DNA of 64,000 nt, taken from positions 25,174 through 89,173 of the IMG/VR virus record IMGVR_UViG_3300021400_000621; one strand, 5' to 3'. This stretch comes from a virus (lineage: Duplodnaviria > Caudoviricetes). Both the position numbers and the translations under genes were made by a program. The notes beneath the pieces were generated by a model. That model had not been told where the DNA came from and did no database searches. It worked only from the letters and a program-made list of their open reading frames with translations. Positions 11,146 to 54,783 of the stretch are shown here, in pieces (positions within the stretch are counted from its first letter, which is position 1; every line of letters starts with the position of its first letter).

Positions 11146-13392
11146 ATGTATATAGTAAAAAGAGATGGACGTAAAGTTCCTTTTAACCAAAACAAAATTA
11201 TTGATGCAATTCTCAGCGCATTTATAGAAATTGATGGCCAGGTATCAGAGTATGCCCTCATCAAAGCTGGTAATATTGCAGACTATATTCTTGAATATGC
11301 AAAGAAAGCAGACCATCTGCTTGATGTAGAAGAAGTTCAAGATATGGTAGAAACAGGACTTATGTCCACTAAAAGAAAAGATGTAGCTAAAGCATATATT
11401 AGTTACAGACAGGAAAGAACAAAAGAACGTAATAGACGTGATGAAGTACAGCAACTAGTTCGTGAGAAACTTTATGCTCTGAATGTACAGAATCAAAATG
11501 CTAATGTCGATGAGCACTCATTCGGCGGCCGCAAAGGAGAAGTAGATTCAGTAGTTATGAAAGATATTGCTTTAAGTGATTTAATTTCACCAAAAGCAGT
11601 AAAAAATCATGTTGAAAATAGAGTTTATATTCATGACCTTGATGCTTATGCAGTAGGTATGCACAACTGCTTATCTGTTCCTTTCGATAAAATTCTTGCT
11701 AATGGATTTTTTGATGGAAAACAAACAGATGTTCGTGGCGCTAATTCTGTAAATACTGCATTTCAACTTGTAGCTGTTGTATTCCAGCTTCAATCACTTC
11801 AGCAATTTGGTGGAGTATCTGCTACACACCTAGATTGGACAATGGTTCCATATGTAAGAAAGTCATTCTATAAGCATTATGCTGATGGATGTAAGTACAT
11901 AGGCAATCTTGACGAGGATAATTTAGATAAAATTATCACATATGCAAGAAATGAACAGTTAAGTATTGATGATGACTATTTCAAAGAAGATAGTAAAATT
12001 TATCAATATGCTCTTGATATGACAAAGAAGGAAGTACATCAAGCTGTTGAAGGTATGTATCATAACCTAAACACTCTTCAGAGCAGAAGTGGTAATCAGC
12101 TTCCTTTTACAAGTATTAACTATGGTACTTGTACACTTCCAGAAGGTAGAATGGTAACTGAAGCACTACTTACGGTATCTATGGAAGGTGTTGGTAAACT
12201 TGGTCTTACTCCTATTTTCCCTTGTGGTATATTCCAGTATTGGAAAGGTGTAAATGATAAACCAGGTACACCGAATTATGACCTGTTCAAGATGGCACTC
12301 AAAAGTACATCTATGAGATTATATCCAAACTATGCTAATGTAGACTGGTCAGGTAATGCTGGGTATGATCCTAAGGACCCGAAAACATACTTCTCAACAA
12401 TGGGTTGCAGAACTGCCAATGGATGGGATATTAATGGATTCGGTCAACTAAAGGATGGTAGAGGAAATATCTGTCCAGTTACTATAATCATGCCAACTAT
12501 TGCTATGGAAGCAAAAGAAGAAGCAGAAAATAGTGATGGTGTTGACATAATTGATGTATTTATGGAAAAGTTAGATAACGCAATTCATGATGCTAAAGAT
12601 ATTCTGATTGAAAGATTCGATTGGATTTGCAGTCAAGATGCGGCAAGTGCTAAATTTATGTGGATGAATGGCACTATGGAGGGATATGACCCTGAAGAAG
12701 GACCAAAGTCTGCACTTAAGCATGGTACACTTGCTCTTGGTCAATTAGGATTAGCAGAAACTCTTCAAATCCTCATAGGCTGCGACCACACAGACGAGAG
12801 AGGAATGGAACTTGCAAAGCGTATAGAACAACTGTTTAAAGACCGTTGTGCTCAGTTCAAAGAAGAGGAAAGACTTAACTTCGGTGTATATTATACTCCA
12901 GCCGAGAACCTCTGCTATACTGCGATGAAGAAGTTTAAGGCTAAGTATGGGGAGATTCCAAATGTCAGTGATAGAGAATATTTCACAAATTCGATGCATG
13001 TACCAGTCTGGAAAGAAATATCTCCATTTGACAAAATTGATATTGAATCACAGCTTACTGGTTACAGTAGTGCTGGTTGTATTACTTATGTAGAACTCGA
13101 CGGAGCAGTACAGCACAACTTAGATGCTTTAGAAACATTAGTAAATTATGCTATGGATAAGGATATTCCTTATTTTGCTATTAATATTCCAAATGACCAG
13201 TGCTTAGATTGCGGCTGGACTGGAGAAATTAATGAAACATGCCCTAAGTGCGGTGGTAATCATATTCAAAGACTGAGAAGAGTTACAGGTTATTTAACTG
13301 GTAATTATACAACTGCATTTAATCTGGGTAAACAAGCTGAAGTTAAGGATAGATATAAGCATAGCAACAGACTAGTAAATTGGAGGCATTAA
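11146..13392 (+). CDS. nrdD: Anaerobic (class III) ribonucleotide reductase with ATP cone
   Basis: N-terminal VKRDG ATP cone, MGCRT active-site finger, CxxC..CPKC zinc site, glycyl-radical loop RRVTGYL. Confidence 0.95.
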   Translation: MYIVKRDGRKVPFNQNKIIDAILSAFIEIDGQVSEYALIKAGNIADYILEYAKKADHLLDVEEVQDMVETGLMSTKRKDVAKAYISYRQERTKERNRRDEVQQLVREKLYALNVQNQNANVDEHSFGGRKGEVDSVVMKDIALSDLISPKAVKNHVENRVYIHDLDAYAVGMHNCLSVPFDKILANGFFDGKQTDVRGANSVNTAFQLVAVVFQLQSLQQFGGVSATHLDWTMVPYVRKSFYKHYADGCKYIGNLDEDNLDKIITYARNEQLSIDDDYFKEDSKIYQYALDMTKKEVHQAVEGMYHNLNTLQSRSGNQLPFTSINYGTCTLPEGRMVTEALLTVSMEGVGKLGLTPIFPCGIFQYWKGVNDKPGTPNYDLFKMALKSTSMRLYPNYANVDWSGNAGYDPKDPKTYFSTMGCRTANGWDINGFGQLKDGRGNICPVTIIMPTIAMEAKEEAENSDGVDIIDVFMEKLDNAIHDAKDILIERFDWICSQDAASAKFMWMNGTMEGYDPEEGPKSALKHGTLALGQLGLAETLQILIGCDHTDERGMELAKRIEQLFKDRCAQFKEEERLNFGVYYTPAENLCYTAMKKFKAKYGEIPNVSDREYFTNSMHVPVWKEISPFDKIDIESQLTGYSSAGCITYVELDGAVQHNLDALETLVNYAMDKDIPYFAINIPNDQCLDCGWTGEINETCPKCGGNHIQRLRRVTGYLTGNYTTAFNLGKQAEVKDRYKHSNRLVNWRH

Positions 13393-15246: not shown

Positions 15247-15282
15247 TAAAAATGCGGAGGCATTAGCCTCCGCTTTTCTTTT
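15247..15282. terminator. Bidirectional terminator between convergent dut and recombinase
   Basis: Stem GCGGAGGC/GCCTCCGC (15254-15273) with an A-run on the left and a T-run on the right. Confidence 0.85.
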
Positions 15283-16276
15283 ATCCGAATATTCCTCGAT
15301 AACTATTTATCATAGAACTAACATCACTCTTTGCATATATTCTAGTTGTATTAATATTTTCATGCCCAAGATAATCCTGTACCTGTTCCAATGGCATGCC
15401 ATGTCTAAGTAAATATGTTGCTGTAGTATGTCTAATCAAATGAGGATATACTCTTCTACCTATGTCTGCTCTTTCACCTAACTTGCGAATTATCTTTTCA
15501 AGTGCTTCTTTTTTAATTCTATGATATGGTCGCCTATCACTAACAAACAGTGCTGGGTCATCATCCTCTCTAATAGCTAGATATTCCTGGATGGCCATCA
15601 CCGCCGCCGCATTTAACAAGACTACCCTTTCTTTATTGCCTTTTCCAGTTACCTTTAATATTCCACGATTAAAATCTATATCTTTAACATCAATATTTAC
15701 CACCTCGCTTACTCTACATCCCGTCGCAAAGAAGAACTCAAGTAATGCACGTTCCTTTGGCTTAACACATGCATACCGCAATTTTTCTAGTTCCATATCG
15801 GTCAGAGGTTCCCGCACATTTTTCTTATATTTAATTGGCTCTATAGTTGCCATAGGGTTTGATTTAATCCTGCCGCAATCCGTCATATATCTAAAGAATC
15901 CATTTAGGATTACTCTCATTGTATCTTTTCTTCTCTTGCTTATATGTCTACGGCGTTCATAATCATCTAAAAAAGTAATTACATCCCATTCCGTTACATC
16001 TGGTAGTGCTTTTGGTATAGCTAAACAAAATGCTTTAAGTGTTAATGAGTATTGCCGCAGCGTTCCTTCAGATAGTCCCTTTGCTTTCTTTCTAACTAGA
16101 TACTGTAATACTTCTGAGTAACAGTTATCTACAGTACATAGGCTAGTTTCCTGTGGAGAAAAATTAAAATTATTTATTACTTCTTCTATTGCTTTATCTA
16201 TTATAAGTAAATCTGTTGATTCAAAATTATTAGATAATGATTTGAGTATTTCATCTCTTATTTCTCTTGTAGTCAT
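15281..16276 (-). CDS. Tyrosine recombinase (XerC/D-like fold), candidate shufflon invertase
   Basis: Catalytic set R (TGCRVSE), K (GKGNKER), HxxR (HLIRH), H (LGH) and Y (TTRIY) plus an N-terminal core-binding domain; directly adjacent to the first repeat site. The invertase role is inferred from context. Confidence 0.9.
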   Translation of the reverse strand: MTTREIRDEILKSLSNNFESTDLLIIDKAIEEVINNFNFSPQETSLCTVDNCYSEVLQYLVRKKAKGLSEGTLRQYSLTLKAFCLAIPKALPDVTEWDVITFLDDYERRRHISKRRKDTMRVILNGFFRYMTDCGRIKSNPMATIEPIKYKKNVREPLTDMELEKLRYACVKPKERALLEFFFATGCRVSEVVNIDVKDIDFNRGILKVTGKGNKERVVLLNAAAVMAIQEYLAIREDDDPALFVSDRRPYHRIKKEALEKIIRKLGERADIGRRVYPHLIRHTTATYLLRHGMPLEQVQDYLGHENINTTRIYAKSDVSSMINSYRGIFG

Positions 16277-16318
16277 AATTATTCTCCTTTTGTAAAAATT
16301 TAATTTCTTAAAAAAATA

Positions 16319-16347
16319 ATTATAACATTTTATTTATAAAAATTCAA
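16319..16347 (-). promoter_or_regulatory. SigA-type promoter of the recombinase
   Basis: On -: TTGAAT, 17 bp spacer, TG-n-TATAAT, then AAAGGAG RBS before ATG 16276. Confidence 0.75.
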
Positions 16348-16364
16348 TTGTATATTAAACAATA

Positions 16365-16380
16365 GTTAAGTAAATAATAA
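16365..16380 (+). repeat. Putative recombination site A (GTTAAGTAAATAATAA)
   Basis: Exact 16-bp inverted copy at 17065-17080; heads cassette A in frame. Confidence 0.8.
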
Positions 16381-16732
16381 TTTTATAGCTAATCCTATTA
16401 CTTTTTATGGTGCAAATGGAACAACTCCTGCTATTAATGCTTGGTATTTAGGTATGATAGTTTATATCTGTGGATTTGTTGAAAATGTAAGTACTGCAGC
16501 AAGCTCTGAAAAAATTATTGCAACTGTTAATCATTATAATACCATACCACATCCTAGGACTGTTATTAGAGTTCCAGGCAGATATGGAACAGCATACTAT
16601 CCTGGAACTAATTGTTATACAGCAGTTACAAGTCGAGACGGCCGTATAGATATAGTGATGACAAGTTCAACAAGCACTTCTAATGTGCAAGTTTATTTTG
16701 GAAGTGTTGTTTATTATGGTAGCATTGCCTAA
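16373..16732 (+). other. Silent C-terminal cassette A (119 aa, NNNFIANPITF...YYGSIA)
   Basis: Open frame starts at the site core directly after an in-frame TAA and includes ORF-track 16454-16732; no start or RBS at its 5' end. Confidence 0.78.
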
Positions 16733-16742
16733 AATAATCATT

Positions 16743-17072
16743 TTAATCAAAACGTAAGACTAATGTAAGACGTATATAATTTGTACCAGTATTATTAGCA
16801 CAAATTGTATAAAAACGGTTTTGTTCCCCTGCTTGCGCATACCATAATGTCCCTCTACTACCAGCCATAGTATCATAGGTTTTTATGTCACAATATTGTA
16901 CACCTGCAGGCTCCATTGGTCCAATAGCTAAACCATAAACACCTGCATTAGAATATGTGGCATATATAGAATATATTCCTGTATAGGGCCATGTAATAGA
17001 ATATCTACTGCCCCATGAAGTGGTAGCAGTATATGAATACTGTGATGTCCATGTTGTTGTAAACTTATTATT
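16743..17072 (-). other. Silent C-terminal cassette B (109 aa, NNKFTTTWTSQYSY...LTLVLRFD), missing from ORF track
   Basis: Translated by hand: open from the site core to TAA at 16745-16743, preceded by an in-frame TAA; tail-to-tail with cassette A (10-bp gap). Confidence 0.78.
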
Positions 17073-17080
17073 TACTTAAC
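17065..17080 (-). repeat. Putative recombination site B
   Basis: TTATTATTTACTTAAC is the reverse complement of site A. Confidence 0.8.
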
Positions 17081-17172
17081 CCACTTATTTAATTAACTTG
17101 TATAATTATACATATATAGCATCTTTGTTACTGCGGCAGGACCGCCGCCAAGACTATTAACTTAAATTGTCC

Positions 17173-17201
17173 TTGACTCTTGAAAAAATTTTTGCTACAC
17201 T
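17173..17201 (+). promoter_or_regulatory. SigA-type promoter of the RuvC-like gene
   Basis: TTGACT, 17 bp spacer, TG-n-TACACT. Confidence 0.65.
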
Positions 17202-17237
17202 GTAGTTAGATAGAATAAACAAAAAGAGGTAAATAAA

Positions 17238-17753
17238 ATGACAATTATGTCTTTAGATATATCAACTACATCAACAGGTATAGCAATATTTGATAATAAT
17301 AAACTATTACTTGTAGAATGTATCGCACCGACTGGCAATGTATGGAAGCGTATTCGCAAGATAACAAATAGAATAGAAGAATTGGTGGAACAATATAAGC
17401 CGCAGGCTATTATAGCAGAAGAACCAGAACCTGCATTTGTAAAGAATAATATAGATGTATATCGCAAATTAACAATAGCACATGGTGATATAACTATCAT
17501 GTTAGATGAACATAAACTAGAAATGCAGCTGTGTACAAGTGCTCATTGGAGAAAAATGGTTGGAATTAAAACAGGTAGGGGGATAACAAGAGCTATGTTG
17601 AAACCAAAAGACATAGAAAAAGCGAAGGAATTATTCCCTAAGTTTGCGGCGGAGGTAAAACAGAATGATGACAAAGCCGATGCTATTTTAATTGGATATG
17701 CTTATTATCTTGAGCATGCAAAGAAAGAAGAATTAGAGTATAACTGGGAGTGA
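17238..17753 (+). CDS. RuvC-like Holliday junction resolvase (RNase H fold)
   Basis: IMSLDISTTSTGIA first strand with catalytic D, IIAEEP, and C-terminal DDKADAILIG. Confidence 0.8.
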   Translation: MTIMSLDISTTSTGIAIFDNNKLLLVECIAPTGNVWKRIRKITNRIEELVEQYKPQAIIAEEPEPAFVKNNIDVYRKLTIAHGDITIMLDEHKLEMQLCTSAHWRKMVGIKTGRGITRAMLKPKDIEKAKELFPKFAAEVKQNDDKADAILIGYAYYLEHAKKEELEYNWE

Positions 17754-17821
17754 CCTCCGGTAGGAAACACGCGCGGGCGTAGGTGAATGACATCTTGTAA
17801 TATCTAGAATAAGAAGTATGG

Positions 17822-17848
17822 AAGACACGCCGCCGCGTGTCTTATTTT
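17822..17848 (+). terminator. Hairpin terminator after the RuvC-like gene
   Basis: 9-bp stem AAGACACGC/GCGTGTCTT with CGCC loop, followed by ATTTT. Confidence 0.6.
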
Positions 17849-17867
17849 AGTGAATTAAATGAACTTC

Positions 17868-17883
17868 GTTAGGTAAATAATAA
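17868..17883 (+). repeat. Putative recombination site C (GTTAGGTAAATAATAA)
   Basis: One mismatch to site A; heads cassette C in frame. Confidence 0.78.
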
Positions 17884-18391
17884 TTCACAGACAATGAAAG
17901 AAAAATTATTTCTAGATGATTTTGCGTATTTTTCTTTAAACAACGGAGTTACAATGCATCCAGCAGAAGGTGCAACAATTAGTAATAGTTCTAGCAATCC
18001 TGGAGGCATAACATATACTAGCTCTTATGAAAATAATTTTATACATATTTATAACACAGGTGGAATACGTAATATGACTTCAAAAAATTTAGTGTTATTA
18101 GTGGCAATGCATATTAGCTATATAAACTCAAGTTCTGCGGGAGATTATAGTATTGGAACATGGATTAAAAGACACACAGCAAGTGAAAGTACTTATCAAA
18201 ATTATAAATATTTAGGTTTTACTTCCTCTAATACAGGCGTATATTGTATTGTTGCTGATACTGTCTATGTATCTATACCACCAGGAGGATATATAGCTAT
18301 ATTAGTTTATAATCAAACAAGTGGTAAAACTATAAAAACAGCTTCAAGTGGATGGGTAGATTTTATACCTGTATCTATGTATAATGAATAA
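17876..18391 (+). other. Silent C-terminal cassette C (171 aa, NNNSQTMKEKLF...VSMYNE)
   Basis: Frame opens at the core right after an in-frame TAG and is continuous with ORF-track 17894-18391. Confidence 0.75.
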
Positions 18392-18394
18392 AAT

Positions 18395-18712
18395 TTAAAG
18401 AGCACTAGAAATAGTACCTAATATATATCCGGCATTAACAGTTACAGCAATTTTTGCAGTTAAAGATTGACTAGAATTACGTATAGATATAGCAACTCCT
18501 TCTGAAGTAAAATTAGTACGATAAACATAGCACCAACTACAATACTGACCTTGATTGCTAGCATTATTAATATCCCAATACCAAAGCATTCTACTATAGC
18601 TAGGATTGAGTGGTACAGGTACAGTATATATACCGATACCATTTGGAGCCAATGTTTGATTATCAAATAAGTAGGCATGGAATCTTATTAATTCTGGCGT
18701 AAAATTATTATT
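18395..18712 (-). other. Silent C-terminal cassette D (105 aa, NNNFTPELIRFHAY...GTISSAL)
   Basis: Frame runs from the core at 18714-18705 into ORF-track 18395-18652; tail-to-tail with cassette C (3-bp gap). Confidence 0.75.
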
Positions 18713-18740
18713 TACTTTCCTATCATTTACTTAACTATTG
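18705..18740 (-). repeat. Putative recombination site D (tandem: perfect core plus degenerate copy 15 bp upstream)
   Basis: On -: CAATAGTTAAGTAAATGATAGGAAAGTAAATAATAA; the first 16 nt are identical to 16360-16375. Confidence 0.72.
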
Positions 18741-18841
18741 ATTTTCGTAAAAGATTTTTACAACCATTCGAGGCGAAGCCAAAAAAACGGGTGTTAAGCA
18801 TTTTTAGCTTAACACCCGTTAATCTATCAATTATAAAATTA

Positions 18842-18991
18842 CTATGCTTCGTAAGGCTTTCCTGTAATTTCTGTAAACTCTGCTTCAGTAATTCCGAGAT
18901 GTTTACCAACAACGGCTCTTACTCTCTCAATACTCCAGAGTCCTTTATCATAGAAACCTTTAATCTTTTCAAAATTTTTGCTATGATTCAT
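18842..18991 (-). CDS. XkdX-family small tail-associated protein, 49 aa (not in ORF track)
   Basis: AAGGAGG RBS; MNHSKNFEKIKGFYDKGLWSIERVRAVVGKHLGITEAEFTEITGKPYEA matches the XkdX pattern (KIK.FYD.GLW...IT..E..EITG..Y). Confidence 0.85.
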   Translation of the reverse strand: MNHSKNFEKIKGFYDKGLWSIERVRAVVGKHLGITEAEFTEITGKPYEA

Positions 18992-19005
18992 AACATTCCT
19001 CCTTG

Positions 19006-19407
19006 TTACAGTTCAATATCAGACATAATAGCAATGTACTCAATATCAGATGTGTTCTTTGCTGTCTGTTCTGCAAGACCTGGTTTAGCAAGTTCTACAA
19101 GAACAACATCACATTTGCTTTCTGTTGATTCGCCTGTCTCTTCATCTACGCTTGTATCATATACATAGTCAAAGATTTTTTCAAGCTTTGCAACTACGCT
19201 ATATCCAGTTACAATACGTAGAGTTTCTGTTTCAGTTTCATTTTTAATCTCAATACGAGCGATATTTGCGGCGTCACTAACAACGTCCTCAATCTCGCCC
19301 AGTTGGATTCCGTCAGCTTTGATCAGAGCGCGGAATACATCACTGTGAACGCTGAATCCACTTGGAACAACGTCATATTTAAAGTTTCCGAAAACAATTT
19401 TATTCAT
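19006..19407 (-). CDS. XkdW-like protein preceding XkdX (possible fibre assembly factor)
   Basis: AAGGAGA RBS; C-terminal SDIEYIAIMSDIEL motif typical of genes immediately upstream of XkdX. Confidence 0.65.
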   Translation of the reverse strand: MNKIVFGNFKYDVVPSGFSVHSDVFRALIKADGIQLGEIEDVVSDAANIARIEIKNETETETLRIVTGYSVVAKLEKIFDYVYDTSVDEETGESTESKCDVVLVELAKPGLAEQTAKNTSDIEYIAIMSDIEL

Positions 19408-19529
19408 ATTAAATCTCTCCTTTGCGGCGGCCTAGGTGACCACCATCTTTGTATATCTAGATAAAGCGGGATGTTTTTAACGACCTCCCGCAATTACAAA
19501 CTTTTTATATATAAGTTTAAAAACGTATC

Positions 19530-19554
19530 TATCTATTATTCCACTAAATAATAA
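19530..19554 (+). repeat. Putative recombination site E (TATCTATTATTCCACTAAATAATAA)
   Basis: 21 of 25 nt identical to site F; core at 19545-19554; inverted relative to the core inside gene 19955-20782. Confidence 0.78.
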
Positions 19555-19942
19555 GACTCTCGACTACAATCATATTCCTTATGAATCCTTGGTATGGGGA
19601 AGTAGTTATTACTATACTGTGGGAAGTGCTTCAGTAAAGCAGGTTTACAATTTATTTTTAATTAATTTTATATTAACTATATCCCGTGAAATAGTAGATT
19701 TTTCTACCGTACAATTACTTAGATTACCAACACACAGATTAAGTGGACCACAATTTTCTACTGTAATGGCTTATAGTAGTAGCAGTGGAACTGCTCCTAG
19801 TGTTTATCCATATGGTGGATCTGAACTGGCAGCAGGAGGCAGGACTTATTTAGCTCAATCTATAATGTATCATGTATATTCTGGATATAAACTTGGAATG
19901 ATGTGTATTATAGTTGGAGAGCCTGGATACGGATGGGATTAA
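19547..19942 (+). other. Silent C-terminal cassette E (131 aa, NNKTLDYNHIPY...GYGWD)
   Basis: Core is in frame with ORF-track 19589-19942; tail-to-tail with the C-terminus of fibre gene 1 (12-bp gap). Confidence 0.78.
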
Positions 19943-19954
19943 TTAATTTTATAT

Positions 19955-20782
19955 CTAGTCTTCAATCTGTTTATATAGAAATCTAACAGTAACTTTTTCT
20001 GTTCTTAGTGCAGAAGAATACATTCTGATTGCGATTCCTCCACCTGCAATGTAATCACTATAATCCATAAACCAATTATTATATCTTGGATTAGATGATG
20101 TAACTGATACCATAAGCGGTGTGATACCACCACTTACACCTAACTGACTTGGAGTTACAATTACCACTCTTACTGTATTTGCTTGAAGTGTATAATTTTC
20201 TGTAAACATCGCTAGTCTTACAGTATTAATAGAAAAGTTATTATTTAATGTACTTAATTGCTGAGCGATAGTACTTGTCGCGTCCGGTAGATCCGAAGCA
20301 CTAGCATAACCGACTACATTAGCAAAATAATCATTCAAAGCAGATTGGGAATATGTCTTATAGTCACTAGGACTTGCAACATCCTCAACACTAGATAAAA
20401 ATACGTCTTTAAACTTGTTGTCTACTCTTTTTCTAAACCTATTGAATTTTGTCCACATACTAGATGTAACTTCTGTTGCATTAGTAACACGGACACTGGT
20501 GTCTAATAGTTCAGTTGATGTTTCACTACTAGACGAATCAAAATTCTGTATACCACTTGAAACTGTGGTGTTACCAATGTTACCACCTGATGCAGTAACC
20601 TTGGTGTTGATCTGACTCTGTATTGGTGCGGCGGCGCTTGGTATATCGCCGAGCACAGTCTGGAGATCTTTAGTACTAGAGTCAGACATTTCTACATCTA
20701 CATTTGAAGCATCAGCACCAATGGGTGTTTCTGTACCCCATATGCCGTCCTCAAACTGAGATACTGATTTAATTTTTGACAT
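19955..20782 (-). CDS. Tail-fibre/receptor-binding-like protein 1 (constant about 179 aa plus exchangeable 96-aa C-terminus)
   Basis: AAAGGAGA RBS; N-terminus aligns with 21296-22288 up to QLSTLNNN, then diverges; located in the distal tail region. Confidence 0.78.
   Translation of the reverse strand: MSKIKSVSQFEDGIWGTETPIGADASNVDVEMSDSSTKDLQTVLGDIPSAAAPIQSQINTKVTASGGNIGNTTVSSGIQNFDSSSSETSTELLDTSVRVTNATEVTSSMWTKFNRFRKRVDNKFKDVFLSSVEDVASPSDYKTYSQSALNDYFANVVGYASASDLPDATSTIAQQLSTLNNNFSINTVRLAMFTENYTLQANTVRVVIVTPSQLGVSGGITPLMVSVTSSNPRYNNWFMDYSDYIAGGGIAIRMYSSALRTEKVTVRFLYKQIED
20238..20260 (-). repeat. Putative recombination site G1 inside fibre gene 1 (CAATTAAGTACATTAAATAATAA)
   Basis: 23-nt exact match to 21756-21778; encodes QLSTLNNN. 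Confidence 0.8.
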
Positions 20783-20883
20783 AATTTAATCTCTCCTTTT
20801 GTCTCGCGGCGGTCCCGCCGCAGGATATGTAAGCGGTGCCCGGTGAAAGACACCGCGGAATTGGTTTCATTAAAATTGGGTTT

Positions 20884-20908
20884 CATCTGTTATTTTACTA
20901 AATAATAA
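20884..20908 (+). repeat. Putative recombination site F (CATCTGTTATTTTACTAAATAATAA)
   Basis: Near copy of site E; core at 20899-20908; inverted relative to G2. Confidence 0.78.
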
Positions 20909-21299
20909 AACTTCTAATGCTACAACCTCTAAAGCAGGATTAATGTCTGCTGCTGATAAAACTAAACTTAATGTAGTAAATTCTGATTATAAAACTGCTT
21001 ATAAAGAAGTATACATTGCAGCTAATAATTCTGGAAATTTAGCACAATTATCATTAACAGCTGGCATATGGCTAATAATAGGATTTGTAGATTTTAATGC
21101 TACTGTAAATCAATATAATGTATCCATAACTGGACCTAATAATTTTTTACATACTGTTAGAGCTTGGGGAGCGAATGGAGGCGGAACTAATAATGTAATA
21201 GTACATAGAGTGACAGCAGGAACCTTTACATTAGTTTGTTGGACACCAACTGCTGCAACTGCCAGAGGTACTATGTATGCTATTAAATTAGCTAGCTAA
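20901..21299 (+). other. Silent C-terminal cassette F (132 aa, NNKTSNATTSKAGLMSAADKTKLN...)
   Basis: Core is in frame with ORF-track 20943-21299; in-frame stop at 20871 upstream; contains the phage tail-fibre repeat AT...GLMS..DK.KL; overlaps the fibre gene 2 stop by 4 bp. Confidence 0.82.
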
Positions 21300-22288
21300 T
21301 TATATATATAAAAACCACTTGCTTTTAACCATCCCCAATAATCACTGGCACTTGTAGTTTTGCCACTTTTAGTGACAAAAAATACTCTACTAGCTCCAGA
21401 GGTATTTGTTAGTCTAAATTGTGGACTTGTAGTAGAATAAACATCTTCTATAATTCCTCTACCGGAATCATGATAAGCAGTCCCCAAACTAGTAGTAGTT
21501 ACTAACATTGTACATTCTCCTATAGTAATACCTCCAGTTGCAATAGAAGAATATGATGGTTGAGGGTTAGGCATTGTGCAATTAGCATATTCTCCAGCTT
21601 CTGAAACATGTGCTTTAATAGTTATGCTCCATAATATTAATTTTGCTGCCGGAAACCAAATATAATTACCATAACGATAGTCATAACTTGCTGACATTGA
21701 ACGATTTTTTGTCCCGGCCATTAAAACAGGAACATATGTACTATTAATCGGTATATTATTATTTAATGTACTTAATTGGTCTGCTACTGAACCAACAGTA
21801 GCTACGTCCGCATCTGTTTTATATCCAATTACATCAGCAAAATAACTATTCAATGCTGCTTGAGAGTACGTTTTAGTATCACTTGGCTCAAGCACATCCT
21901 CAACAGAACTAATTAAAAAGTTACTAAATTTATTTGAAACCCTTTTTCTAAACATATTAAATTTTGACCACATAGTAGTCTGACTTTCACCTGCCGCAAC
22001 TACTACGTCTGTGCCGTCAATATCCTCTGATGTGTCTGTCTCTGAAGCAGGATCAAGGACACTGACCACAGTATCTTTTATATCTCCACCGCTGGCATTT
22101 ACTTTACCAGTCAGTTGTGTTTTCATACTAGGATCGGAAACTGAAACATTACCAAGTACTGATTGTAAATCTTTAGTAGAAGTAGAATCACTTAAAGCTA
22201 CATCTACATTACTTGCATCAGCACCAATAGGAGTTCCATTTGCCCAGCTTCCGTTATTATATTCATAAACTTCTTTAATTTTTGGCAT
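21296..22288 (-). CDS. Tail-fibre/receptor-binding-like protein 2 (constant about 175 aa plus exchangeable 155-aa C-terminus)
   Basis: GAGGAGG RBS; paralog of 19955-20782 (TPIGADASNVDV, MW.KFN.FRKRV.NKF, KTYSQ.ALN.YFA). Confidence 0.78.
   Translation of the reverse strand: MPKIKEVYEYNNGSWANGTPIGADASNVDVALSDSTSTKDLQSVLGNVSVSDPSMKTQLTGKVNASGGDIKDTVVSVLDPASETDTSEDIDGTDVVVAAGESQTTMWSKFNMFRKRVSNKFSNFLISSVEDVLEPSDTKTYSQAALNSYFADVIGYKTDADVATVGSVADQLSTLNNNIPINSTYVPVLMAGTKNRSMSASYDYRYGNYIWFPAAKLILWSITIKAHVSEAGEYANCTMPNPQPSYSSIATGGITIGECTMLVTTTSLGTAYHDSGRGIIEDVYSTTSPQFRLTNTSGASRVFFVTKSGKTTSASDYWGWLKASGFYIYN
21756..21778 (-). repeat. Putative recombination site G2 inside fibre gene 2
   Basis: Identical 23-mer to G1; core at 21756-21765. 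Confidence 0.8.
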
Positions 22289-27977: not shown

Positions 27978-30161
27978 TTAAATTTTTTGTAATGCTTTAC
28001 TTGCGGTTATACTCATCATAGAGTTCACATCCAAAGGAATAGAAATAGTTTGAATCATATAATCGCCATATATACCAGAAGCGGGGTCATTAACAGTAAT
28101 TCTTGTATTAGGCTCTAAATAATAAATAGGTAAAGCACTAATAGTAATACTATTATTCATATTAGTATATTGATATAGCATTTCACATACTCTTTGATAA
28201 GCTGAGTTCTGCCAGCCGCCCATAATCATCAAATCATAAATAGTTGGTGTTACTTGCGCCCAGGCTTGTCCCATTGAGTCACATTCTTCTCTTAATCTTT
28301 TCTGTTGTTCAGAATCTAATTCATTATCAATAAATACTATATCTGGAACTTCTTGTTCAAATACACAATTAATCCCATCCTCTGAAACAGCAATACTGCG
28401 TCTTCCAATATTCTGTACATTATACTTTCCAACTTCTGCATCACTGTCTATTATATCTAAATAAAAATCAATAGAACTAGGGTCTTCCGCAATAGCAGAA
28501 ACAAATTGTTGATTTTCCAAATCATAAATCTTAGGTAATTCTTCAATTAACTCAGTATAATAATAAGGAAAATCTGTTCCTGTTTGCCAAGCCTCTAATC
28601 CTTGATAATACAACTCTTCACGCCAATCTCTTGAATAAATAGTCTGTCCTACATCAACAGTAGTAGGAACATACTCACCAGAAGTATTATCCCAAGCATA
28701 ATATTGATTGTTATTTATATCATAATAAAATCTATCATCATGTCCTTCGCGTGGGAAACTCATAGCATTATCGAATACCATTACATAACTTCTTGCTCTA
28801 ACCACACCAAATTCATCAGTATATAAACTAATGCCTTTGTGTTCACCATAAACATAATCTGGATTTTCATCTGTTCCTATGTTTAATGTTTTTTGTGGTT
28901 TTTTATCAATAGCTAAATGGTATCTAATAGGAATCTGATTACCTAATGTATCAGTTCTCACTCCCCATACTACATAATCATTTTTAATATTACTATATAA
29001 AGGCGCATTACTAAAGCTATTAACTAACTTTGTTCCTTCAAAAGTATAAACAGACATACCACCCGAAAGGTCAATTGTATAATCTTGAATTGCATCTGCT
29101 TCTAATGTTTCTGCGGGAGTCTTACCGCCGTGATTAGCTTCATAAGATTGATATGAAGTGTAAGTTGTATTTAAATAATTCTTAATTTCTTGGAATCTAA
29201 ATCTACCATATACATCATAAAAGTATTCATAGTTACCTAATAACTGTACAATCTGATCTAGCACTCCAGTAACAGTTTGTCCAACATCACCAATCAACTC
29301 ACCTGGGTAAGTAAAATCAGTTAAGAAGAAACCTACATCTTGACCTGCTTCATAAGGTGTAATTGCGGCGGCGTCACCCCCGGCCGCATCTAACGCATCC
29401 GCATAGTCGATATAGTAACTGTGTGTAGTTTCTCCAGTGTCACTAGATAGCTTCACATAATATAATGGAGTATCTCCGCTCCATTGAACAACCTGTTTAA
29501 TTCTTTCATCAACATCAGAAATAATAATATTAGCCATAGCTTCTTCACCCCAGTGATTAACTACTTCCATAATAATTTGCTTAATCGTTGGGTTGTCTAT
29601 ATAATAAGTCCCATCTTCACCTTCTTGGTCTCTAGTATGGAACTCGACGGCGGAAGGAATTACTCCTCCCGCGTCGCCATTTAATAAACACATTTTATCT
29701 TTTAAAGTTAAACTAATATTAACTCCTGTTGTTGAGTGAGTAATGTTAGGGTCAAATATAACAAAGATTCCCATTGGAAACCAAATTATATTACCATACT
29801 CTTTTTTATAATCAATGGTATAATGAAATGTCTGGTCTTTTAAACCATGAATAGCATCATAAGTATAATTAGGAACAGTATTCTTTATACCAATTTCTAA
29901 TTTAATTTTTCTATTAATTGACAATAAATCATCAATTTCTGTTAAGTCATTTACTAATTCTTCAGCAAAGACTGTCAAATTTGCGGTTCTTCTTAAACTT
30001 GAATTGCCATCAAGATTCAAAGTACCGCTAATTACTTTTCCTTGTATCTCTTGAACTGGGTCTTCTTTCCAAGATAAAACAGTTATTCTCACAAACTGCT
30101 CTTTGACTCTTAAATTATCAAGCTGATTCAGAAAAAGTTTATCTTGTAAGAACTCATACAT
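27978..30161 (-). CDS. Putative baseplate-hub-like tail protein (start moved to ATG 30161)
   Basis: AAAGGA RBS before MYEFLQDK; long ORF in the tail block. Function is inferred from position only. Confidence 0.6.
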   Translation of the reverse strand: MYEFLQDKLFLNQLDNLRVKEQFVRITVLSWKEDPVQEIQGKVISGTLNLDGNSSLRRTANLTVFAEELVNDLTEIDDLLSINRKIKLEIGIKNTVPNYTYDAIHGLKDQTFHYTIDYKKEYGNIIWFPMGIFVIFDPNITHSTTGVNISLTLKDKMCLLNGDAGGVIPSAVEFHTRDQEGEDGTYYIDNPTIKQIIMEVVNHWGEEAMANIIISDVDERIKQVVQWSGDTPLYYVKLSSDTGETTHSYYIDYADALDAAGGDAAAITPYEAGQDVGFFLTDFTYPGELIGDVGQTVTGVLDQIVQLLGNYEYFYDVYGRFRFQEIKNYLNTTYTSYQSYEANHGGKTPAETLEADAIQDYTIDLSGGMSVYTFEGTKLVNSFSNAPLYSNIKNDYVVWGVRTDTLGNQIPIRYHLAIDKKPQKTLNIGTDENPDYVYGEHKGISLYTDEFGVVRARSYVMVFDNAMSFPREGHDDRFYYDINNNQYYAWDNTSGEYVPTTVDVGQTIYSRDWREELYYQGLEAWQTGTDFPYYYTELIEELPKIYDLENQQFVSAIAEDPSSIDFYLDIIDSDAEVGKYNVQNIGRRSIAVSEDGINCVFEQEVPDIVFIDNELDSEQQKRLREECDSMGQAWAQVTPTIYDLMIMGGWQNSAYQRVCEMLYQYTNMNNSITISALPIYYLEPNTRITVNDPASGIYGDYMIQTISIPLDVNSMMSITASKALQKI

Positions 30162-53742: not shown

Positions 53743-54783
53743 CTAATTAGTGATTTTAAGACTACTGTTAGTGTATACACAGATACCAGGGTTAACCAGA
53801 AGAACACCAACACCGAACTTACGGTAAGTCTGGATCTCTCTTGACCAATCCTCTTGGCTCTCAACTTCACGTACAGCAGTTTCGCCCTCAAACGCAACCT
53901 TGACTGGCTTATCGCTACCAGTTGGGATAATGTAAGCCTTAGAAGGATCCATTACCTTAACTGCGTTATCAATGTCTGTGAATGACTGAGGCAGGATAAT
54001 AACATTATGTCCCTTATAAGTAGCATAATATCCAACATCCCAACGCTCTTGCTTCATTTCATTAGAAGCCCATCTGTCATCTGGAATCATTGTTGCAGCG
54101 AACTCAAATGTGCAGTAAATAGTAGACTTACCATAAACATCAGCTGTCTGGATCAGTCTATCCATCTGAGCTTCTACGAAACCAGTTTGGCTAGTCTTGT
54201 TCTTAGCAGTTACCTTAGCAACAGCAGCATCAAGACCCTTAGCGATTTCTCTGTAAACAGCTTCGTCCATACCCTCAAGAATGAGGTCATAAACATCACT
54301 CATTTGGATTCTGCCATCAAGGAACTCTTCGAATCCAATCTGAGCAGCTCCGCCCCAAGCGCTTGTAGGAATTTCATAAGTATCTCCATCAAGCTTGAAG
54401 ACTTCATATCTACCAGCAAGACCAACTCTTGTTACGAAGTTGTTCTTAGCTCTAATTCTGGATTTAGCACTGATTCTTGTTGAGAATACAGGCTTATCTC
54501 CCTGTGCATATGTCTTAACTTCTGCGAACTGTCCGTAGTTCTGCATAACTCTTGCAGGAAGAATTTCATCAACACCAACCTCGATAAGTTCGAAGATGAG
54601 GTCTCTATTTCTTCTATACTCACGGAAATTAGAAGCAAGTTCATTCATTTCTTTTCTAAATGTCTCATTTAAAGCCTCGAATGTAAGATTCTTTCCTTCA
54701 TAAGAGAAGTTAGCAGAAGGATTTAAAGAGGCTTTTGCAGTAGCCTTAGCTAATGCGATTAAATTTGTTCTATCTAAAGCCAT
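53743..54783 (-). CDS. Major capsid protein
   Basis: 346 aa, high-expression codon usage, follows the protease/scaffold and decoration genes, followed by a terminator. Confidence 0.8.
   Translation of the reverse strand: MALDRTNLIALAKATAKASLNPSANFSYEGKNLTFEALNETFRKEMNELASNFREYRRNRDLIFELIEVGVDEILPARVMQNYGQFAEVKTYAQGDKPVFSTRISAKSRIRAKNNFVTRVGLAGRYEVFKLDGDTYEIPTSAWGGAAQIGFEEFLDGRIQMSDVYDLILEGMDEAVYREIAKGLDAAVAKVTAKNKTSQTGFVEAQMDRLIQTADVYGKSTIYCTFEFAATMIPDDRWASNEMKQERWDVGYYATYKGHNVIILPQSFTDIDNAVKVMDPSKAYIIPTGSDKPVKVAFEGETAVREVESQEDWSREIQTYRKFGVGVLLVNPGICVYTNSSLKITN

Follow-up and report, generated by a model that had tools for sequence, protein, structure and literature searches.

A predicted tyrosine-recombinase shufflon serving two tail-fibre genes of an AT-rich phage

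Phage-encoded tyrosine-recombinase shufflons which act on tail fibres or receptor-binding proteins have already been described. In the Rin shufflon of Bifidobacterium breve and B. longum prophages, the array is bordered by the gene for an XerD-like tyrosine recombinase that lacks an arm-binding domain (Mavrich et al. 2018, PMC6109161), and a constant part, Rc, is joined to start-less Rv cassettes, each of which resides behind an asymmetric 11-bp rix repeat, to which the inversions map (PMC6109161). The array is compact, comprises one acceptor and five cassettes and is found in temperate actinobacterial prophages, and its inversions were seen in induced virions (PMC6109161). Similarly, BV01-like phages of Phocaeicola vulgatus harbor a recombinase-flanked multi-cassette shufflon that overlaps a tail-fibre gene at its distal end (PMC13596623). 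There, a directional 10-bp motif is used, configurations differ between samples, and activity was shown by read counts (PMC13596623); three cassettes in 1.7 kb serve one fibre gene of a temperate phage with a Bacteroidota host (PMC13596623).

The locus described here is located in a stretch of 64,000 nucleotides (the window) of a metagenome-derived virus contig. A sequence-only reading had proposed that a tyrosine recombinase shuffles C-terminal tips between two tail-fibre genes of this phage. All structural elements of this interpretation were supported by our analysis, and among related assemblies the junctions fall inside the core. As far as can be judged from sequence, it is thus very probable that the locus represents a tyrosine-recombinase shufflon which loads alternative tips onto two fibre genes.

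Organization of the locus

The record from which the window is taken comprises 89 kb, is ~68% complete and carries replication genes. The phage, with an AT-rich genome of ~130 kb and found in gut-type metagenomes, apparently belongs to a virulent-type lineage, and no integrase other than the recombinase of the locus was found in the 89-kb record. The fibre genes come after the tape-measure and tail genes, and the locus is located at the end of the tail module. Its features are as follows.

15281–16276, minus strand: Xer-like tyrosine recombinase, 331 aa, presumed shufflon invertase (Pfam PF00589, NCBIfam and PDB matches)
16371–16380, plus strand: site 1 core, exact TAAATAATAA, heading cassette A
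16370–16732, plus strand: silent cassette A, 120 aa including VNNN, without start codon or SD, TAA just upstream
16743–17075, minus strand: silent cassette B, 110 aa, core site 2 at 17065–17074, tail-to-tail with A
17238–17753, plus strand: RuvC-like Holliday-junction resolvase (PHROG 159 at 2e-19, Pfam RuvC at 4e-5)
17873–18391, plus strand: silent cassette C, 172 aa, core site 3 at 17874–17883 (from ORF and core)
18395–18715, minus strand: silent cassette D, 106 aa, core site 4 at 18705–18714 (from ORF and core)
18842–19407, minus strand: passenger unit of a 133-aa gene (19006–19407) and a 49-aa XkdX-like gene (18842–18991) (PHROG 12931)
19544–19942, plus strand: silent cassette E, 132 aa, core site 5 at 19545–19554, flip partner of acceptor 1
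19955–20782, minus strand: acceptor fibre gene 1, 275 aa, with its own SD (from ORF, paralog alignment and homologues); constant part from 20782 down to 20248, core site 6 at 20238–20247, loaded cassette G at 19955–20237
20898–21299, plus strand: silent cassette F, 133 aa, core site 7 at 20899–20908, flip partner of acceptor 2
21296–22288, minus strand: acceptor fibre gene 2, 330 aa (from ORF, paralog alignment and homologues); constant part from 22288 down to 21766, core site 8 at 21756–21765, loaded cassette H at 21296–21755

The claim of eight alternating cores in 5.4 kb, all in one frame, was borne out by exact search and frame reading: the 10-bp core TAAATAATAA occurs at 16371+, 17065-, 17874+, 18705-, 19545+, 20238-, 20899+ and 21756-, in strict +/- alternation from 16371 to 21765 (5.4 kb), and all eight copies share the frame xTA-AAT-AAT-AAN, encoding (L/V)NN(N/K), and are followed by an open frame of 97–172 aa. 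The window as a whole contains 13 copies, where 2.1 are expected from sequence shuffles (largest shuffle, 6). The other five either meet a stop within a few codons or reside in unrelated frames, and resemble chance occurrences in AT-rich DNA. Beyond the 10 bp, conservation is weak; the left flank reads AGTACAT at both acceptor sites (6 and 8), TT(C/T)(C/T)AC at sites 5 and 7, and (G)TTA(A/G)G or GGAAAG at sites 1–4; 16 bp upstream of site 4, an A-type site persists as a degenerate relic. The six start-less frames headed by cores were confirmed and have no ribosome-binding sites. ORF coordinates likewise gave the four tail-to-tail pairs of 704, 841, 703 and 867 bp with stop-to-stop gaps of 10, 3, 12 and -4 bp, and the recombinase, placed about 90 bp from the first site by the earlier reading, starts 94 bp from site 1.

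The remaining two cores, 20238- and 21756-, reside inside full genes, just where the paralogs had been said to cease aligning: the two acceptors are 49% identical in an alignment that ends exactly at QLSTLNNN. Each consists of a constant N-terminal part of ~178–183 aa, the LNN(N/K) encoded by the core and a C-terminal tip of 94–153 aa. Among 103 homologues, more than 20 have N-termini 95–100% identical to that of acceptor 2 followed by unrelated C-termini, and in these near-identical proteins the switch occurs exactly at LNN(N/K); the junction motif is at the same place in all 66 homologues that carry it. Cassettes of relatives match Gp10_C (3e-22, from the junction on) and the tail-fibre Gp53-like_C domain. 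Structure prediction suggested acceptor 2 to form a homotrimer (score of 0.80 against 0.00 for the best control, runs agreeing in >=85% of contacts, pLDDT >=77), by a rough mark, given three copies and a custom alignment, which 20 of 30 proteins solved as same-chain pairs and one of 23 solved as single chains attained.

The recombinase matches PF00589 at 1e-40, together with SAM-like N-domains (core-binding), scores 229 bits against the XerA-type NCBIfam model (cut-off 220) and far below the cut-offs of the XerC and XerD models, and matches XerA, XerC-like and XerD structures in the PDB at 1e-23 to 7e-31. All six catalytic residues (R188, K215, H279, R282, H305 and Y314) are present, while a lambda-type arm-binding domain is absent from the 331 residues. 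The XerA-type score shows a likeness in fold and family but not Xer function, the context being a phage tail module rather than a dif site. The protein is the only PF00589 match in the 89-kb record; we infer that it catalyses the switching, with the timing and frequency of its action likewise presumptive. A serine-invertase fibre switch of the Gin/Cin/Min type was also considered and rejected, as PF00239 (serine recombinase) has no match in the 89-kb record, ~68% complete.

Rearrangements among related genomes

The evidence for switching is comparative and stems from related genomes that are not proven to be clonal. A comparison of related contigs for different segment orders, as had been suggested, revealed pairs that have moved or flipped and cassettes swapped between silent sites and both acceptors. 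Clustering of the 115 cassette instances at 70% identity yielded 73 clusters, of which 11 occur on both acceptors and five are both silent and expressed; the LIIDTGKTG cassette, for instance, is silent in L012 but belongs to fibre 1 in L018 and to fibre 2 in L062. Between L064 and L012, whose flanks are 99.7% identical, the recombinase-proximal pair of L012 is found inverted behind fibre 2 in L064, its cassette DNA being 98.2% identical, and both new junctions consist of one site's left flank, the core and the other site's right flank. Judged from the assemblies, two inversions would produce just this arrangement, and the reciprocal junctions fall within the 10-bp core. The contig of L064 ends 8 bp past an acceptor core, which, like the duplication in L014, may hint indirectly at several isomers in one population. 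L014 is 99.94–99.98% identical to the window and has two copies of a 1354-bp unit that extends between sites 7 and 5, including a hybrid site with the site-7 flank and cassette E, which suggests a recent event; the duplicate may, however, reflect the way in which the assembler traversed a mixed population and not a real molecule.

With regard to the cassettes of the window, H is joined to the acceptor-1 N-terminus in P0001/L011, F is silent behind acceptor 1 in L011, and C forms the C-terminus of full fibres in the distant relatives P0082 and P0081. The sole relative of A is a 91-aa fragment of the silent type, with no fused relative found, and none of A, B, D, E and G was found joined to a different position in the other genomes examined. 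The RuvC-like gene is flanked by two sites of opposite orientation, and in L012, L018 and L063 it runs in the reverse direction compared to the window. The unit of the 133-aa and XkdX-like genes comes after the fibre genes in every relative, and PF09693 is recorded for the XkdX-like counterpart in L014 and others. L018 and L063 have no recombinase and only the two acceptor-linked pairs, whereas genomes with the recombinase have 6–10 cassettes. As inverted core pairs are retained in both, those sites persist without this enzyme and may be frozen or served by another one.

In other phages, recombinases 52–60% identical to that of the window are encoded at the end of tail or receptor-binding-protein modules. 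One of them, 60% identical, is encoded in L067 ~100 bp from four copies, in alternating orientation, of a different core, TACAAATTT, the first of which follows ...QINTLN in a fibre-like gene. The recurrence of this family, with different cores, at tail modules of other Bacillota-type phages suggests that tip shuffling by tyrosine recombinases is a common phage strategy that is under-annotated.

Proposed mechanism and alternative explanations

Most probably, the two paralogous late genes yield trimeric fibres with a constant N-terminal anchor and shaft, the LNN(N/K) junction and a C-terminal tip, and six further tips are stored as start-less frames in the four tail-to-tail pairs, behind the same core and in the same frame. 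The Xer-like recombinase would act on any two oppositely oriented cores, so that the intervening DNA flips and one of the two constant parts receives a different in-frame tip. By nested inversions, cassette pairs would change position, and the RuvC-like gene, the 133-aa/XkdX-like unit and the upstream region of fibre 1 together with its N-terminal part would flip as well; each of these genes has its own ribosome-binding site. The resulting phage population would carry different pairs of receptor-binding tips, likely as a hedge against variation of the host surface, and the tips presumably set the host range.

Pairs have moved between unrelated flanks with both reciprocal junctions within 10 bp of identity. 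RecA-type exchange needs longer identity, and such junctions are typical of conservative site-specific recombination, which argues against a frozen or relic array. Such an array would be a mosaic hot spot in which swaps over evolutionary time result from homologous or microhomology recombination at conserved borders; the recombinase would serve another purpose, such as lysogeny or dimer resolution, and programmed inversion would be absent from the life of the phage. This explanation would account for the cassette pairs held by relatives without the recombinase and for the generic Xer-type score of the enzyme, and most replacement of pairs between strains has conserved flanks, where homologous recombination would also stop at the core. 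However, the silent cassettes are all open and in frame, without starts or SDs, implying continued selection for use, extra silent pairs are confined to recombinase-bearing genomes, and the 60%-identical recombinase of L067 accompanies an analogous array with a different core. We therefore regard a frozen array as unlikely. It is highly improbable that the six start-less frames are ordinary small or fibre-accessory genes and the decamer a shared coding motif or regulatory element. An internal ATG or TTG is present in each cassette, and gene callers give ORFs of 85–165 aa, but an SD-like motif is absent from six of the seven possible internal starts and present in all eight real genes checked. 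In addition, an in-frame TAA stands immediately 5' of the core codon at sites 1–3, that is, in three of the six silent cassettes, and five codons upstream in a fourth (site 4), and the same cassettes occur in other genomes as in-frame C-termini of full-length fibres, joined exactly at the decamer. That repeats in a metagenomic contig were misassembled is less probable still: the record is metagenome-derived and the duplicated unit of L014 may be an assembler path, but the same architecture, with conserved site positions, is found in independent assemblies (ENA, Logan and JGI; several samples), and assemblers use k-mers far longer than a 10-bp repeat, so that reads must span any junction.

Tentatively, the shufflon might also be more than an intragenomic switch and act as a platform for cassette exchange between co-infecting phages, although this is rather doubtful. 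A pair bracketed by two inverted cores has the geometry of recombinase-mediated cassette exchange, by which whole pairs could be swapped between genomes. Such exchange would explain that the tip sets of genomes 96–99% identical hardly overlap (the 115 instances form 73 clusters) and that their borders coincide with the cores. If so, the two acceptors would equip each virion with a combination of tips taken from the pool of the whole population, comparable to the sharing of cassettes by integrons.

The main obstacle to the prediction and use of phages is host recognition. Two fibres re-tipped from one shared store would provide up to 8 x 7 ordered pairs per genome, provided that all arrangements are accessible. 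In annotation, start-less cassettes are routinely mistaken for small hypothetical genes, and in assembly such loci break contigs or give duplicated paths.

Comparison with known systems

As in Mu Gin, P1 Cin and p15B Min (see PMC6109161), the C-terminal part of a fibre would be swapped while the constant N-terminus is located outside the invertible DNA; p15B Min also has several crossover sites and many isomers. In contrast to these serine recombinases with enhancer and Fis, the locus has a tyrosine recombinase and two acceptors, and no PF00239 protein is present in the 89-kb record. The R64 shufflon (Rci, pilV; see PMC9881135) similarly combines a tyrosine recombinase with many short asymmetric sites with partly conserved arms and tail-to-tail C-terminal cassettes for a constant N-terminus, and only inversions are productive there. 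It differs in residing on a conjugative plasmid, in acting on a pilus adhesin with one acceptor and in its longer sfx sites; the recombinase of the window scores as Xer type.

The array shares with BV01-like phages the multi-cassette, recombinase-flanked arrangement at the distal end of a fibre and a 10-bp motif, but has two fibre genes and eight tips, and its switching is deduced from genome comparison. The likeness to Rin is one of architecture: both have a phage-encoded Xer-like recombinase without an arm-binding domain next to the array (94 bp away here), a short asymmetric repeat heading each cassette in alternating orientation and a single frame, a constant N-terminal fibre part with start-less alternative C-termini, and rearrangement junctions in the repeats, here seen between closely related genomes only. 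Unlike Rin, two paralogous acceptors share one pool, the pairs extend over 5.4 kb with flippable passengers in between, the core differs and is 10 bp long, and the genome is AT-rich, of ~130 kb and equipped with replication genes. The sequence-only reading had named the two acceptors, the interleaved passengers and the very short core as unusual; the former two hold, the passengers being flippable, whereas the core is matched by the 11 bp of Rin (PMC6109161) and the 10-bp motif of BV01-like phages (PMC13596623). What is new in this locus is the presence of two acceptors on one pool, the flippable passenger genes and a very large pool of cassettes across strains.

The core repeat, its cassettes and the passenger units

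Against an expectation of 2.1 and a maximum of 6 in dinucleotide-preserving shuffles, the window contains 13 copies of the decamer TAAATAATAA. Eight of these copies, sites 1 to 8, lie within 16371-21765 in strictly alternating +/- orientation. Each of the eight shares the codon phase xTA-AAT-AAT-AAN and leads into an open frame of 97-172 codons (cassettes A to H); the five further exact cores are located elsewhere in the window. Two of the cores reside inside full genes on the minus strand, those of fibre 1 (275 aa, ending in cassette G) and fibre 2 (330 aa, ending in cassette H), which share 49% identity as far as the motif QLSTLNNN and no relatedness beyond it. The remaining six head frames without a usable start. 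An in-frame TAA is found immediately 5' of the core codon in cassettes A, B and C and five codons upstream in cassette D, and a Shine-Dalgarno motif is absent at 6 of 7 possible internal cassette starts while being present at all 8 real genes checked. The sequence-only reading had described the locus as a shufflon with eight same-frame alternating cores, two paralogs that cease to align at QLSTLNNN and six start-less frames, and all of this was recovered here, as were its pair lengths, its stop-to-stop gaps and the distance to the recombinase gene, which is 94 bp.

The arms around the core, compared at 44 unique sites, show weak preferences on the left (T at -9, A at -7, G/T at -6, T at -5, A at -2) and, at +12 and +15, a bias towards C/T; the weak arm preferences do not define a site, since the left flanks are position-specific and recur across strains. 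In relatives, a large conserved gene for a tail protein contains an exact in-frame core (INNN...) followed by 246 further codons (L011:986, L012:3572; both related contigs), and the counterpart of this core in the window, at about 28710-28719 (minus) in a 747-aa tail gene, is the one-mismatch core TAAATAACAA. As no variation was seen at this position, the tail-gene core is probably a chance copy; it would pose a hazard if the 10-bp core by itself sufficed for recombination. A degenerate A-type site, CAATAGTTAAGTAAATGATA, is located at 18721-18743, 16 bp upstream of the site-4 core. Together with the site-1 region it forms an inverted repeat (46 nt, 80%), and it is probably the relic of an older junction.

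Conspicuous in the AT-rich DNA of the window are G+C-rich hairpin-type elements with GCGGCGG... stems, located near fibre gene 1, the RuvC passenger gene (17238..17753, plus strand) and the passenger unit of the 133-aa gene and the 49-aa XkdX-like gene (18842..19407, minus strand):

17131-17148 and 20806-20823: 18-nt inverted pair, whose members precede RuvC by about 90 nt and fibre gene 1 by 24 nt
17771-17820 and 19424-19473: 50-nt direct repeat, one copy immediately downstream of RuvC, the other immediately upstream of the 133-aa gene

A separate copy of such an element seems to belong to every flippable passenger unit, which would suit expression in either orientation.

Rearranged arrays and exchange of fibre tips

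The sequence-only reading had proposed a comparison of related contigs, and the order of segments indeed differs between them, with junctions at the cores. The contigs L064 and L012 are 99.7% identical in their flanks. The cassette pair that adjoins the recombinase gene in L012 (17227-18125) is found in L064 in the opposite orientation, immediately after the fibre-2 core. At one L064 junction, the core links the acceptor-2 flank to a cassette from a silent site; at the other, the exact reciprocal of the first, it links a site-7-type flank to the partner cassette. Judged by its junctions, the arrangement matches exactly the outcome of two putative inversions. The first would have taken place between the fibre-2 core and the recombinase-proximal core, and the second would have turned back the whole stretch between both cassette pairs.

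A second case is provided by L014, an ENA scaffold with 99.94-99.98% identity to the window. Here, the 1354-bp unit from site 7 to site 5 (window 19545-20908), comprising the constant part of fibre 1 and cassettes G and E, is present in two tandem copies (L014:9875-12592), which are joined by a hybrid site composed of the site-7 left flank and cassette E. The duplication may be real and have arisen by recombination between directly repeated cores, or may reflect the path of the assembler through a mixed population; either reading implies that molecules had recombined at a core in a lineage nearly identical to the window. In addition, the RuvC segment is located between oppositely oriented sites, and its orientation in the window, L011, L014 and L015 is opposite to that in L012, L018 and L063.

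Exchange of tips is similarly indicated at the protein level. Among 103 homologues retrieved with fibre 2, more than 20 match exactly the first 54% of the query at 95-100% identity in their N-terminal part and then continue into unrelated C-termini. The junction motif Q-[LI]-[ST]-T-[LI]-[NT]-N is found in 66 of the 103, at the end of the constant part. The homologue P0001 combines the fibre-1 N-terminus with cassette H (94% identity), which in the window resides on fibre 2. A census of every frame behind a core in the fetched contigs, clustered at 70% identity, yielded 73 clusters from 115 instances; 11 of the 73 were found on both acceptors, and 5 occurred both silent and expressed as C-termini. 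L018 carries one cassette family on fibre 1 and L062 carries it on fibre 2, and in L012 it is silent at a GTTAAG-type site. Without exception, the left flank is fixed to the position and the right flank moves with the cassette. Five of the window's own cassettes were found at no other position in other genomes. For cassette A, a word-indexed search revealed no fused full-length relative, and an exhaustive search identified a 91-aa silent-type fragment as its sole relative. As far as can be read from these sequences, the two paralogous acceptor genes demonstrably draw on one common cassette pool.

The recombinase and the fibre proteins

The array in the window and an analogous one in L067, a 133-kb phage contig from a bioreactor metagenome, are each associated with a tyrosine recombinase:

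15281-16276: tyrosine recombinase, 331 aa, composed of a SAM-like core-binding and a catalytic domain
L067:6459-9951: four-site analogous shufflon with TACAAATTT as its core and a recombinase sharing 60% identity with the enzyme of the window

The best matches of the 331-aa protein are XerA, XerC and XerD, and the residues R188, K215, H279, R282, H305 and Y314 are present. It is the single match to PF00589 in the 89-kb record, in which no serine recombinase was found. The family comprises 1867 proteins at E below 1e-30. Three relatives of 52-60% identity each close a tail or receptor-binding-protein module, and no convincing shufflon-like repeats were identified in two IMG/VR contigs with relatives of 30-33% identity (L009, L010). 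In L067, about 100 bp from the recombinase gene, the four alternating copies of the different core TACAAATTT flank two ORF pairs arranged tail to tail, the first copy following ...QINTLN within a fibre-like gene. The phage is syntenic, with dUTPase and NrdD downstream of the array. Recombinase and core appear to have changed jointly between L067 and the lineage of the window.

Genomes with the recombinase harbor 6-10 cassettes, with additional pairs around RuvC and adjoining the recombinase. In L018 and L063 the recombinase is absent, and the only cassette pairs are the two linked to the acceptors. At the corresponding positions of these 132-kb and 100-kb contigs (L018:16133-17106, L063:16288-17261), the recombinase gene and the neighbouring silent pairs are missing and RuvC directly adjoins dUTPase; both contigs retain one flip partner per fibre gene, plus short relic cassettes.

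Neither fibre gene matched Pfam or PHROG, and Pfam gave nothing significant for the window's eight cassettes. In cassettes of close relatives, matches were obtained to the C-terminal domain of T4 Gp10 (3e-22, from the junction residue on) and to a tail-fibre Gp53-like C-terminal domain. The AlphaFold2 monomer of fibre 2 was unusable (mean pLDDT 45), and the ESM Atlas neighbours of the constant part, BppU and tail-fibre clusters at TM 0.35 or less, are leads only. A three-copy model of fibre 2 scored 0.80 (best control 0.00), with pLDDT of at least 77, contact agreement between runs of at least 85% and contacts along the entire constant part. Of 30 proteins solved as one-chain pairs, 20 attained the mark applied, as did 1 of 23 solved as single chains; these counts are only a rough guide here because three copies and a custom alignment were used. 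The prediction fits an intertwined trimer but does not prove it.

Genome context and relation to known systems

The window corresponds to the rightmost 64 kb of an 89-kb IMG/VR record (34% G+C, estimated completeness 68%); full-length relatives are about 132 kb. The late module on the minus strand encodes a 2696-aa tape-measure protein, several large tail proteins and a DUF285 leucine-rich-repeat protein, followed by the two fibre genes, the 133-aa gene and the 49-aa XkdX-like gene; DNA polymerase, NrdD/NrdG and dUTPase are encoded upstream on the plus strand. NrdD (11146-13392) and dUTPase are intact in the window. In relatives, NrdD is split by genes for homing endonucleases of the HNH (L018:18527-20741) or GIY-YIG type (L063:18682-20837), and in L015 (18103-19430) a DUF2726 gene adjoins a shortened dUTPase gene.

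The protein at 53743-54783 is taken to be the probable major capsid protein; its PHROG family carries no functional assignment. It shares 50% identity with its counterpart in the human-gut phage phAss-1 and 37% with proteins of Enterococcus phages of 140 kb. phAss-1 was reported to read TAG as glutamine (PMC10607447), in a paper that mentions neither a recombinase nor a shufflon. The relative studied here does not seem to be recoded in this region, since the window genes examined are open under the standard code. Searches of IMG/VR, excluding the window's own record, gave no match with the fibre protein or the 20-mer of acceptor flank plus core, and nothing in a phage GenBank collection matched the locus or fibre at the DNA or protein level. 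A metagenome scan with the 20-mer returned 39 loci, one of them the L018 contig; the other 38 were dismissed, as they look like chance AT-rich matches.

The locus belongs to an already known kind, as comparable systems have been described. Rin of Bifidobacterium prophages is a phage-encoded tyrosine-recombinase shufflon acting on receptor-binding proteins, with an XerD-like enzyme and 11-bp rix sites (PMC6109161). The system of a BV01-like Phocaeicola phage comprises a 10-bp motif and three cassettes, with evidence of activity at the read level (PMC13596623), and programmed inversions targeting phage tail genes are a recognised class in genome-wide surveys (PMC9881135). Whereas Rin serves a single acceptor, two paralogous acceptor genes demonstrably share one cassette pool in the present system. 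Further variant features are the scattering of cassette pairs among passenger units able to flip themselves, a genome of about 130 kb with its own replication genes, and a very large cassette pool across strains.
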